NCBI GenBank assembly: GCA_045654485.1
Contig: JAZONN010000023.1
Location: 23,305 to 87,304, forward strand
Direction of reading: 5' to 3'
Source: Candidatus Enterousia sp.
Lineage (GTDB): Bacteria > Pseudomonadota > Alphaproteobacteria > Rs-D84
DNA: 64,000 nucleotides
The notes under the pieces are model-generated. The model did no database searches. It saw nothing but the letters and a program-made list of their open reading frames with translations, and was not told where the DNA came from. Made by a program: the position numbers and the translations under genes. Positions 50,650-52,329 of the stretch are shown one piece after another (position 1 is the stretch's first letter; each line of letters begins with the position of its first letter).

Positions 50650-50675
50650 TAAATCCCCAATTGGGGATTTTTTAT
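50650..50675. terminator. Bidirectional intrinsic terminator
   Basis: atcccc-aatt-ggggat + T6. Confidence 0.55.
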
Positions 50676-51607
50676 CGTTGTGAATTTGTTTTAAACAACT
50701 GTTCGACGTATTGTATTTTTTCCAATTGTTCATGAATAAATGCGATTTTATTTAAGTTGTTTATGATACCTTTTTCGCTTTCTGGCTTGATACGCAAATC
50801 ATCAGATGCTTTGATGATACGACGCAATAGTGCAACCAAAATGCGATATTTCATAATATTGCGCAGGTTTTGATTGCGGACGCCCGGCATCGCATATAAT
50901 TCTTTGTTGTGCATTTTTGTATATGCTTCATATACGGGATTGTATATATCAAGTTCGATTTGTATCGGTCCGAAAATATCACGATATATAAAATGATAAT
51001 CTGCCTCGGCAAAGTCGATAAATGACAGGGTGCTGGATTTTGTATCGTATAAAACGTTGCCTGAATTCAAATCCCCGTGTGACCATGCCAATCGTGTTTC
51101 GTATTCAAATGTTCCGACCGAATCACGAATTTGCCCAAGGTATTTAACGTCTTCAAGGCGGAACCATTTTGACATCTTTGTTTCGATAAATGTGTTCAGA
51201 CGACTAAATTTTAAATCTTCGGATATTTTGTGTGTAATAACATCGCCAATTGGATTTAATTCGTTCATATCGACCAAGAATGATGCAATGCCGTCGATGA
51301 TTTCGTATTTTTGACGTTGTGGCAATGTTTTGAATAATTGTGGTGTTAAATGTTCGCCAGGGGCACGTTCTTCTAATAATTGATATTCATCATCTTTGAT
51401 GTATGTCATTTGTGGGATGTTGTATCGTGGATTGCCAATGGCGGAAATTTTATCAACGATTCCCTTGGTTCTGTGTTGTTTTTCCAGCCATTCATCACGT
51501 GCCGTTTCCCCAAATGTTGGCAGGGGCCGTTTCATTACAAATTTTGGCCCAAAATCTGAGATATATGTTTCTCGTCCGTGAATAAGTGGTTGTGTTACTT
51601 TGTTCAT
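50672..51607 (-). CDS. Aminoglycoside-phosphotransferase (APH)/choline-kinase-like protein kinase fold
   Basis: Brenner motif HGDLNSGNVLYD, IDFAEAD (DxD), 311 aa. Confidence 0.7.
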   Translation of the reverse strand: MNKVTQPLIHGRETYISDFGPKFVMKRPLPTFGETARDEWLEKQHRTKGIVDKISAIGNPRYNIPQMTYIKDDEYQLLEERAPGEHLTPQLFKTLPQRQKYEIIDGIASFLVDMNELNPIGDVITHKISEDLKFSRLNTFIETKMSKWFRLEDVKYLGQIRDSVGTFEYETRLAWSHGDLNSGNVLYDTKSSTLSFIDFAEADYHFIYRDIFGPIQIELDIYNPVYEAYTKMHNKELYAMPGVRNQNLRNIMKYRILVALLRRIIKASDDLRIKPESEKGIINNLNKIAFIHEQLEKIQYVEQLFKTNSQR

Positions 51608-52329
51608 TTTGTAAATGGTTTTGTATTGTTTCTTATTACTGTGATAATGTCACGTTGTGTGCGCAACATTGATTCCAGCATATATTTTGTATATTTTTCT
51701 GTGTCGCCATCCAGATTTGCACGAATAGATTCCATATATTCTGCTTTATCGGTTGGGGCGTCGAAAATAATAGGCGTGTATCCGTTTTTTATCAAGAACC
51801 AATTCATTATCAATCGGGCGGTACGTTTGTTAAAGTCACGGAATGCTTGTGCTTCAATCAAATCGCTGTGTGTTTCGATTGCACGGATAACTGTGTGCGT
51901 GTTTGCGGCATAGTTCGCAGACATTTTATATTCCGCATCCTCAATTTTGTATAGCATTTTGGGGAATGAAGGGGATTGACGACGCAATGCGTATGAATTG
52001 TTTGTGCGATAAATACCGCCTTCGGTATTTTCTGTGTTTTTGCACAGATTTTTATGGATGTCACGGATTGCATAATTGTCCAATATGGTGTCCGTGGGTG
52101 CAGATAAGATGAAGTCCCATGTATTGCGGATGTTGTCGATATTGGTATAATCAATGTCAACTTTGCTTGAATCCAAAGACGATTTGTTCGGATGTAATAT
52201 TTTTGCTTCTGTTCCGGTCATGTCTTTGATAAAACTGATGAACTTTACACGGTTTATGTCCGAGAATGCCATTCCGGCGATTGGCTTAAGTTTATCAATT
52301 TCTGATAATAATTCATTTATAGTTTTCAT
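51604..52329 (-). CDS. Fic/Doc-family-like protein with degenerate active-site motif (QAFRDFNKRTAR instead of HPFx[DE]GNGRxxR)
   Basis: Fic-fold sequence pattern (…NTEGGIYRTNN…, …IMNWFLIKNGY…); 4-bp ATGA overlap with downstream kinase gene. Confidence 0.5.
   Translation of the reverse strand: MKTINELLSEIDKLKPIAGMAFSDINRVKFISFIKDMTGTEAKILHPNKSSLDSSKVDIDYTNIDNIRNTWDFILSAPTDTILDNYAIRDIHKNLCKNTENTEGGIYRTNNSYALRRQSPSFPKMLYKIEDAEYKMSANYAANTHTVIRAIETHSDLIEAQAFRDFNKRTARLIMNWFLIKNGYTPIIFDAPTDKAEYMESIRANLDGDTEKYTKYMLESMLRTQRDIITVIRNNTKPFTK

Follow-up and report, generated by a model that had tools for sequence, protein, structure and literature searches.

In a 64,000-nucleotide stretch of contig JAZONN010000023.1 (assembly GCA_045654485.1) from Candidatus Enterousia sp., hereafter the window, two overlapping genes form a real operon framed by transcription signals: one encodes a protein of the Fic fold with a fixed variant active-site loop, the other an intact kinase of the aminoglycoside phosphotransferase (APH) type. 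Across related loci the pair behaves as a clade-restricted accessory module in a chromosomal slot of variable content, not as a decaying gene. Its elements, in window coordinates, are as follows.

51604..52329, minus strand: Fic-fold gene, 241 aa (Pfam Fic PF02661)
50672..51607, minus strand: APH/choline-kinase-type kinase gene, 311 aa (Pfam APH PF01636)
51604..51607, minus strand: ATGA overlap of the Fic stop and the kinase start
52357..52384, minus strand: sigma-70-type promoter-like site TTGACA-16-TATAAT, 12/12 positions, a consensus match only
50651..50670, both strands: perfect 8-bp hairpin AAATCCCCAATTGGGGATTT with T-runs on both strands, a predicted bidirectional terminator

The original prediction had described two open reading frames (ORFs) joined by a 4-bp ATGA overlap, and both are located on the minus strand at these coordinates. 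The genes are real and not chance ORFs, because they have hundreds of homologues (114 members in the Fic family, 467 kinase homologues), confident AlphaFold models and low ratios of nonsynonymous to synonymous substitution (dN/dS). The promoter-like site lies ~28 nt 5′ of the Fic start, inside a 151-bp divergent intergenic region common with ctpA; promoter-like sites in this region do not in total exceed the shuffle expectation, and this site is the only perfect one. The hairpin sits between the kinase stop and the convergent M23 peptidase gene and is common to both genes. The promoter match and the hairpin terminator thus frame Fic and kinase as a two-gene operon.

The Fic protein passes the threshold of the Fic/Fido superfamily (PF02661, 45.1 bits; cut-off 24). 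Its best solved relatives by sequence are the FICD/HYPE enzymes (E 8e-11), and the family profile matches FICD at E 1e-19. The AlphaFold (AF2) model, computed from a 41-sequence alignment with a pLDDT of 88.7, comprises an N-terminal helix pair, a beta-hairpin (flap) at residues 113-118 and an active-site loop between helices 146-160 and 167-181. Foldseek places FICD on top (E 5e-9, TM 0.76) and bacterial Fic proteins of classes I-III next; the fold and profile matches together confirm the earlier assignment of the upstream ORF as Fic-like.

Alignment to FICD sets QAFRDFNKRTAR exactly onto HPFTDGNGRTAR, and two sites carry the comparison with known Fic enzymes.

51814..51849, minus strand: active-site loop QAFRDFNKRTAR, Fic residues 161-172, from the alignment to FICD
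52207..52209, minus strand: codon of the invariant Glu41, the putative counterpart by alignment of the auto-inhibitory Glu in the class II (S/T)xxxE(G/N) helix

The loop reads Q-A-F-R-D-F-N-K-R-T-A-R in the window and Q-[P/A]-F-x-D-[F/Y]-N-K-R-x-x-R in the family consensus. Set against the canonical AMPylase motif HxFx[D/E]GN[G/K]RxxR, the window protein carries Gln for His and Phe for the first Gly, and the FICD alignment bears out the earlier observation that other residues stand in place of the catalytic His and of both Gly. Q161, F163, D165, N167, K168, R169 and R172 are invariant in 41 homologues. In a kinase-seeded scan of 80 loci, with one genome per species, Q[PA]FxD[FY]NKR occurs in 66/66 Fic genes adjacent to the kinase, all with intact ORFs.

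When 1.84 billion representatives are searched exhaustively with HMMER, ~40 clusters (50% identity) score above 126 bits. All of those covering the loop have Q-x-[F/Y]-x-[D/N]-x-N-K-R, position 6 being F, Y, C, M or L, apart from a single tandem-Fic protein (P0264, 155 bits) that has a canonical loop. At 80 to 120 bits the search finds Q-type loops whose sixth position is Ala, Gly, Thr or Asn (QPFxDANKR, QPFxDGNKR) side by side with canonical class II relatives of the form SNAIEGNTLT ... HPFxDGNGR. Mean column identity over 67 sequences reaches 0.96 for residues 161-170 versus 0.48 for residues 1-145, and thirty residues, concentrated on the loop, are invariant across alleles less than 35% identical. 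The median dN/dS (Nei-Gojobori) of Fic is 0.079 over 52 pairs, that of the kinase 0.072 over 83 pairs, and both genes are under purifying selection.

Because the variant loop is invariant and dN/dS lies at ~0.08, the active site is altered and retained, not decayed. The term degenerate or pseudo-Fic in the original prediction is therefore abandoned, as a loop constant across deeply diverged alleles under purifying selection does not match it. A functionless remnant of a decaying enzyme would account for the loss of the catalytic His and both Gly, and also for one lineage that carries a Fic::kinase deletion chimera. The low dN/dS, the thirty invariant residues, the intact ORFs of all adjacent Fic genes, the variant loop in every clade sequence covering it and the retention of the gene in genomes of ~850 genes all speak against it, and on these conservation data the decay reading is effectively refuted, keeping almost no probability.

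Within the Fido superfamily, the protein is class-II-like in architecture and Doc- or D2-like in loop chemistry, and it fits only the superfamily as a whole, as a variant. It shares with the class II AMPylases FICD/HYPE, CdFic and Shewanella SoFic the common fold, an N-terminal helix whose Glu aligns with the inhibitory position, the predicted beta-hairpin flap and the Asp, Asn and two Arg of the loop. It differs from them by Gln in place of His, Phe/Tyr in place of the first Gly, Lys in place of the second Gly, an identity of only ~18% and the absence of extra TPR or HTH domains. In hmmalign the canonical SNAIEGNTLT occupies the same columns as MTGTEAKILH: E41 and L45, both invariant, fall on the E and the L of SNAIEGNTL, whereas the S/T and G/N of (S/T)xxxE(G/N) are not conserved. 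Glu41 is invariant both in the 41-sequence alignment and in the 67 sequences.

Doc of phage P1, a Fic-fold kinase of EF-Tu, is likewise a single-domain protein with N-K-R instead of N-G-R, but it keeps the His, has neither a flap nor the second Arg, and is paired with the antitoxin Phd. The protein described here has the second Arg as well as a predicted flap and a putative inhibitory-type helix of its own, and its partner gene encodes a kinase. Measured against the definition of Doc (HxFx[D/N][A/G]NKR, no flap, adjacent Phd), it lacks the His, has a predicted flap and is preceded by no small upstream antitoxin gene, and it scores 19.8 bits with TIGR01550 (cut-off 38.65).

A precedent for the loop is "Doc clade D2" (Khater & Mohanty 2015), a group of 45 proteins described in silico only, with the consensus Qx[F/Y]x[D/E][G/V]NKR, which its authors judged functional because of its conservation (PMC4454073). 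Both groups have Gln for His conserved under selection, the Q, F, D and NKR residues and a single domain. As compared through the D2 consensus, the present family differs by an aromatic residue at position 6 (Gly/Val/Ala in Doc and D2), the second Arg, and the predicted flap and putative inhibitory-type helix; Ala or Gly at position 6 occurs only in its more distant relatives. The Gln-for-His exchange is thus already known in silico. No description of an operon of a Fic and an aminoglycoside-phosphotransferase gene was found in the searchable literature.

The Fic-based anti-phage candidates PDC-S04 and SoFic of PADLOC are also single Fic-domain proteins of similar size. Matches of the Fic protein to them reach only the generic Fic level (34-44 bits, E 5e-12 to 6e-9), no better than generic Pfam Fic; the kinase has no PADLOC match, and neither a defence-island context nor mobile elements are seen around the locus.

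The intact metal-binding Asp and phosphate-binding Arg indicate a predicted pocket that still binds something, although its general base is lost. Loss of the general-base His and of the two anion-hole Gly makes canonical AMPylation of a protein hydroxyl by this protein unlikely.

The kinase passes Pfam APH PF01636 (32.9 bits; cut-off 23.2), with weaker Pfam matches at the catalytic loop to Choline_kinase, TCAD9 and OspG_kinase. The TCAD9 match is weak and confined to the catalytic loop, at 24.9 bits (cut-off 40). The AlphaFold model has a pLDDT of 90.5, and its nearest structures are APH(2'') enzymes (E 2e-10, TM ~0.5, ~15% identity). The catalytic elements map as follows.

51530..51532, minus strand: codon of the invariant Lys26 (VMKRP), predicted to be the ATP-binding beta3 Lys from its N-lobe strand position in the model
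51056..51079, minus strand: catalytic loop H177-G-D179-L-N-S-G-N184, Brenner motif HxDxxxxN, with invariant H, D and N
50999..51019, minus strand: I-D198-F-A-E-A-D (residues 197-203), the metal-binding "DFG-equivalent", with invariant D198

Thirty homologues of 60-85% identity share K26, H177, D179, N184 and D198 without exception. Since all catalytic residues are invariant, the kinase is predicted to be catalytically competent. The earlier description of an APH-type kinase with HGDLNSGN (177-184) and IDFAEAD (197-203) stands, as both strings are present and the Pfam model is passed. The style of the motifs, SHGDLNSGN ... IDFAEADY..YRD, is that of small-molecule kinases and suggests that the enzyme probably acts on a small molecule, with a protein substrate also possible.

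No named resistance or housekeeping kinase model of NCBIfam reaches its cut-off: scores are 12-21 bits against cut-offs of 194-600, and 17-21 bits against 475-600 for the resistance models. The best are APH(2'') at 21 bits (475), SrkA PRK11768 at 13 (194) and APH(3') at 12.6 (205), and no other kinase equivalogs match. The models for SrkA/YihE, homoserine kinase II and thiamine kinase are not passed, in agreement with the expectation that the protein is not a canonical housekeeping kinase. It shares the bilobal APH fold, HxDxxxxN, the IDF metal Asp and the beta3 Lys with APH(2'') and choline/ethanolamine kinases (PF01636, PF01633), but unlike APH(2'') it is chromosomal, syntenic and restricted to one genus-level clade. 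Judged by sequence, the kinase is an orphan member of the APH/choline-kinase superfamily, with no named family and no close characterised relative.

An intact small-molecule-type kinase beside a Fic protein that has lost its base and kept its metal-binding Asp and phosphate-binding Arg could also constitute a two-step activation or salvage route for a small molecule. The kinase would make a phospho-ester, and Fic would transfer a nucleoside monophosphate (NMP) to it or use a donor linked to a nucleoside diphosphate (NDP). A His base would be unneeded if the acceptor were already a phosphate, a logic like that of AmgK/MurU or LicA/LicC. The weak Choline_kinase matches and the envelope-gene neighbours ctpA and M23/EnvC-like fit this scheme, as does AvrB, reported to be a Fido domain that lacks the motif and performs rhamnosyltransferase chemistry with NDP-sugars (PMC10866546). 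The route is purely inferential: both genes are dispensable in many relatives, the deep allelic diversification of Fic is not expected of a metabolic enzyme, and no transporter or transferase genes are linked. We regard it as very unlikely.

Enterousia belongs to the order Rs-D84, and the metagenome-assembled genomes (MAGs) reported for Enterousia measure ~0.75-1.0 Mb and lack the tricarboxylic acid (TCA) cycle and respiratory chains (PMC12306168). All 80 genome loci derive from animal or human gut MAGs labelled Candidatus Enterousia, uncultured Alphaproteobacteria or "Rickettsiales". One record, L081 (CAVGNU010000010.1), is titled "Bacteroides fragilis isolate ... cleanbin" yet carries an Enterousia-type ctpA/Fic/kinase locus and is probably mis-binned or mislabelled. 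The slot that holds the operon is bounded by three genes.

52481..53920, plus strand: ctpA, S41 carboxy-terminal protease (Pfam), the divergent neighbour and one edge of the slot
49575..50648, plus strand: coiled-coil M23/EnvC-like peptidase gene (Pfam), at the other edge
48361..49575, plus strand: tyrS (Pfam), also at that other edge

The resulting order in the window is tyrS(+), M23 peptidase(+), kinase(-), Fic(-), ctpA(+). The synteny ctpA / Fic / kinase / M23 / tyrS recurs in more than 30 loci, and ctpA adjoins in 75/80 related loci. Median amino acid identity to the window proteins falls from 83% for CtpA through 72% for M23, 63% for the kinase and 43% for TyrS to 36% for Fic.

Around the slot, the GC skew of the window is positive in all 2-kb bins except one (~zero), and cumulative skew climbs almost monotonically. 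Long ORFs lie mostly on the plus strand, and the Fic-kinase operon is among the few opposite-strand units, presumably on the lagging strand. Just beyond ctpA lies a 225-aa ClpP-like ORF (54189-54866, minus strand; Pfam CLP_protease 63 bits, PHROG head-maturation protease 56 bits), followed by an 80-aa Cys-rich ORF (53945-54187, minus strand). The ClpP-like gene is absent from the otherwise collinear closest relative (L007) and present in only 19/80 related loci, and is a second variable element beside the Fic slot. Elsewhere in the window, three long plus-strand ORFs at 38262-41348, 28325-30418 and 32391-33578 (1028, 697 and 395 aa) have no Pfam match at E<=1e-5. The same holds for five of six scanned ORFs (166-203 aa) at 59024-62974, the sixth being CarD.

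The search for the same gene pair in other genomes was successful: Fic adjoins the kinase in 66/80 kinase-seeded, species-representative loci, in three arrangements. Fic precedes the kinase in 60/80 loci with a junction of -11 to +33 nt, the kinase precedes Fic with a 4-nt overlap in 3/80, and the two converge in 3/80. A Fic-seeded scan covers 41 metagenome loci, of which ~33 are informative and the remainder lie on contigs too short to judge. Fic adjoins the kinase in ~26 of the 33 (21 with Fic before kinase, 5 convergent) and stands alone in at least 7 loci. In 10/80 kinase-seeded loci the place of Fic is taken by an unrelated ORF of ~350 aa, here termed A3 after its alignment.

L034:4915-5964, plus strand: A3 ORF, ~350 aa, between ctpA and kinase; also in L012, L028, L029, L030, L033, L035, L041, L043 and L050

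The A3 alignment spans 10 species with 70-83% identity to its first sequence and contains the conserved motifs ILILGGENT, FTHCHG[TA]YVLRM, INHAPFAPLE and KEHSQVGLSGD. Its members have no match in Pfam, NCBIfam, PADLOC, PHROG or PDB, and a divergent Fic is rejected, since hhalign against the Fic family gives a probability of 0.5%.

One lineage carries a deletion chimera (P0234), in which Fic residues 1 to ~203, with the loop intact, are fused in frame to the kinase's final 45 residues (IKASDDLR...QFSK). Three independent assemblies (L091:1162-1890, L092:1125-1853, L093:355-1083) carry this chimera, which looks like a natural inactivation of the operon. Each gene is found without the other, so neither is obligatory and the locus is accessory; the Fic-only, kinase-only and deletion-chimera loci rule out a housekeeping core function of the pair.

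Comparison of closely related loci reveals that Fic is swapped as a cassette between near-identical flanks. In L009 and L010 the kinases are 95% identical (dS 0.24) and the Fic proteins 37% (dS saturated). A sliding DNA comparison of these loci gives 92-99% identity through ctpA and kinase and 47-70% over Fic and the first ~75 nt of the kinase, one breakpoint lying in the intergenic region between ctpA and Fic, the other ~75 nt inside the kinase gene (locus ~5150-6080). The window and its closest genome (L007) have Fic proteins that are 98% identical (dS 0.22) and kinases that are 85% identical (dS 1.08). DNA identity falls at the gene junction and remains lower through the M23 gene, a pattern that indicates a recombination breakpoint where the two genes of the operon meet. 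Where two loci have CtpA at least 95% identical, their Fic proteins are anywhere from 36% to 100% identical. In seven pairs with kinases at least 85% identical (85-95% overall), Fic identity is 36-50%, and Fic types defined at 60% identity mix within kinase clusters defined at 80%.

Of the functions considered, the most likely on present sequence evidence is that of a linked module, a lineage-specific accessory operon of Ca. Enterousia in which Fic and kinase act on the same substrate or pathway; we give it a little less than an even chance. The Fic loop would have been remodelled and then frozen as Q-P/A-F-x-D-F/Y-N-K-R-x-x-R in a soluble class-II-type protein, whose strongly constrained pocket may bind a nucleotide or phosphoryl ligand. 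Its reaction would proceed without the His base, as Doc-like transfer or Glu-assisted hydrolysis ("eraser"), or the protein may instead serve in ligand-dependent regulation. Clade D2 is a precedent for conserved Doc-like proteins with Gln for His, and AvrB for different chemistry in a Fido domain that lacks the motif. The pair would usually be co-transcribed from one promoter, with the kinase as writer and Fic as reader/eraser or second modifier, neither strictly needing the other. Exchange of the Fic cassette between strains points to a role in a variable interaction with stress, a competitor, a phage or a host, and not in core metabolism.

Several observations weigh against such a link. The kinase stands alone in 4/80 loci (L014, L051, L062, L078), and Fic stands alone in the ctpA/M23/tyrS slot of L087 (an 887-kb contig), L097 and L099, which hold divergent members of 185-254 bits. 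In ~8 loci, three from genomes (L075, L084, L086) and five from metagenomes (L116, L122, L131, L138, L140), the kinase is inverted, follows tyrS-M23 in the same direction and converges with Fic, so co-transcription with Fic is not required. tyrS and the M23 peptidase gene also overlap, by 1 nt; start/stop overlaps are thus common in this compact genome, and the shared ATGA says little about whether Fic and kinase are functionally linked. No partner-specific co-evolution is detected: among kinases with bodies at least 85% identical, identity of the N-terminus is 0.93 where the Fic type differs and 0.91 where it is the same. This lack of co-variation argues against a specific tight complex.

Adjacency could, moreover, merely reflect a common insertion hotspot. 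In this main rival to the linked module, unrelated accessory genes share one recombination or insertion hotspot between ctpA and M23-tyrS, and their spacing results from genome compaction. The inverted kinases, the absent co-variation and the common gene overlaps fit it, together with at least four states of slot content, including the unrelated 350-aa ORF, and the more distant Q-type Fic genes (L094, L098), which lie elsewhere in unrelated contexts with no kinase. The frequency of adjacency in both scans, maintained in three arrangements, and the 4-nt overlaps in both gene orders are harder to reconcile with it. Besides Fic, only the kinase and A3 families occupy the slot, whereas a true hotspot is expected to hold many. 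We consider the hotspot unlikely, though a serious contender.

Fic/Doc proteins and HipA-type kinases are known toxin families, and the original prediction had offered a toxin/antitoxin-like pair; in such a pair the toxicity of one protein would be neutralised by its partner. The overlap of the two genes within one operon fits that proposal, and replacement of Fic by the A3 ORF resembles antitoxin swapping. However, obligate pairing, co-variation and mobile distribution, the hallmarks of type II systems, are all missing: each gene occurs alone in otherwise syntenic loci, Fic and kinase do not co-vary, and the chromosomal position is vertically conserved in genomes of ~0.75-1.0 Mb. Relatives of Fic, kinase or the A3 ORF are absent from 2.9 million viral contigs, and 72,556 plasmids contain no relative of the kinase, their Fic matches being only generic Fic proteins of ~24% identity. 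No small DNA-binding antitoxin is present, the Fic protein carries its own putative inhibitory-type helix, and the PADLOC results give no support (no match for the kinase, only the generic level for Fic). The toxin/antitoxin proposal is consequently not upheld and appears highly improbable.

The other proposal of the original prediction was a host-targeting effector module. The exchange of Fic cassettes is also what would be expected of secreted effectors of a host-dependent symbiont, aimed at a host or competitor and diversifying in an arms race. The variable N-terminal and flap-side regions around a constant core, the reduced genome without TCA cycle and respiration (PMC12306168) and the weak similarity of the kinase to OspG at the catalytic loop are compatible with that idea, as is a VirB11/T2SSE-type ATPase gene in the window (41601-42596, minus strand), which has no obvious secretion-system neighbours. 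Sequence inspection for Sec-type signals finds no signal peptide, signal-like N-terminus or hydrophobic/transmembrane segment in either protein, and no chaperone gene is identified. Unlike typical effectors, the kinase changes slowly (63% median identity, dN/dS 0.07), its motifs are of the small-molecule APH/choline-kinase type, and no host is known. An effector role is therefore quite improbable.

A bolder form of the linked module holds that the Gln-type Fic protein is active with a chemistry new to the Fido fold and forms, with the kinase, a new writer/eraser or two-step modification system, which we rate as distinctly unlikely. Its chemistry might be Glu41-assisted hydrolysis of a phospho- or nucleotidyl-adduct, or transfer of an NMP or phosphoryl group to an acceptor that needs no general base. 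Interchangeable Fic cassettes would then retarget the system from strain to strain in a gut symbiont with a reduced genome.

For the organisms, the locus offers a clear natural case of a cassette being replaced while its flanks stay conserved, here in uncultured gut Alphaproteobacteria. What functional study would yield is uncertain, as some relatives do without one gene or the other and no specific substrate is indicated; Fic is nevertheless often coupled to an orphan kinase of the APH type and persists in ~850-gene genomes, which makes the two a concrete protein pair for study. For the family, Fic enzymes are defined by a catalytic His, and this clade fixes Gln in its place, together with the Lys known from Doc, an aromatic side chain in the anion hole and a retained Glu of putative inhibitory type, the loop staying constant although identity elsewhere in the protein falls below 35%. 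A variant loop fixed despite such divergence argues for at least one further activity or ligand-binding mode of the Fido fold that has yet to be characterised.

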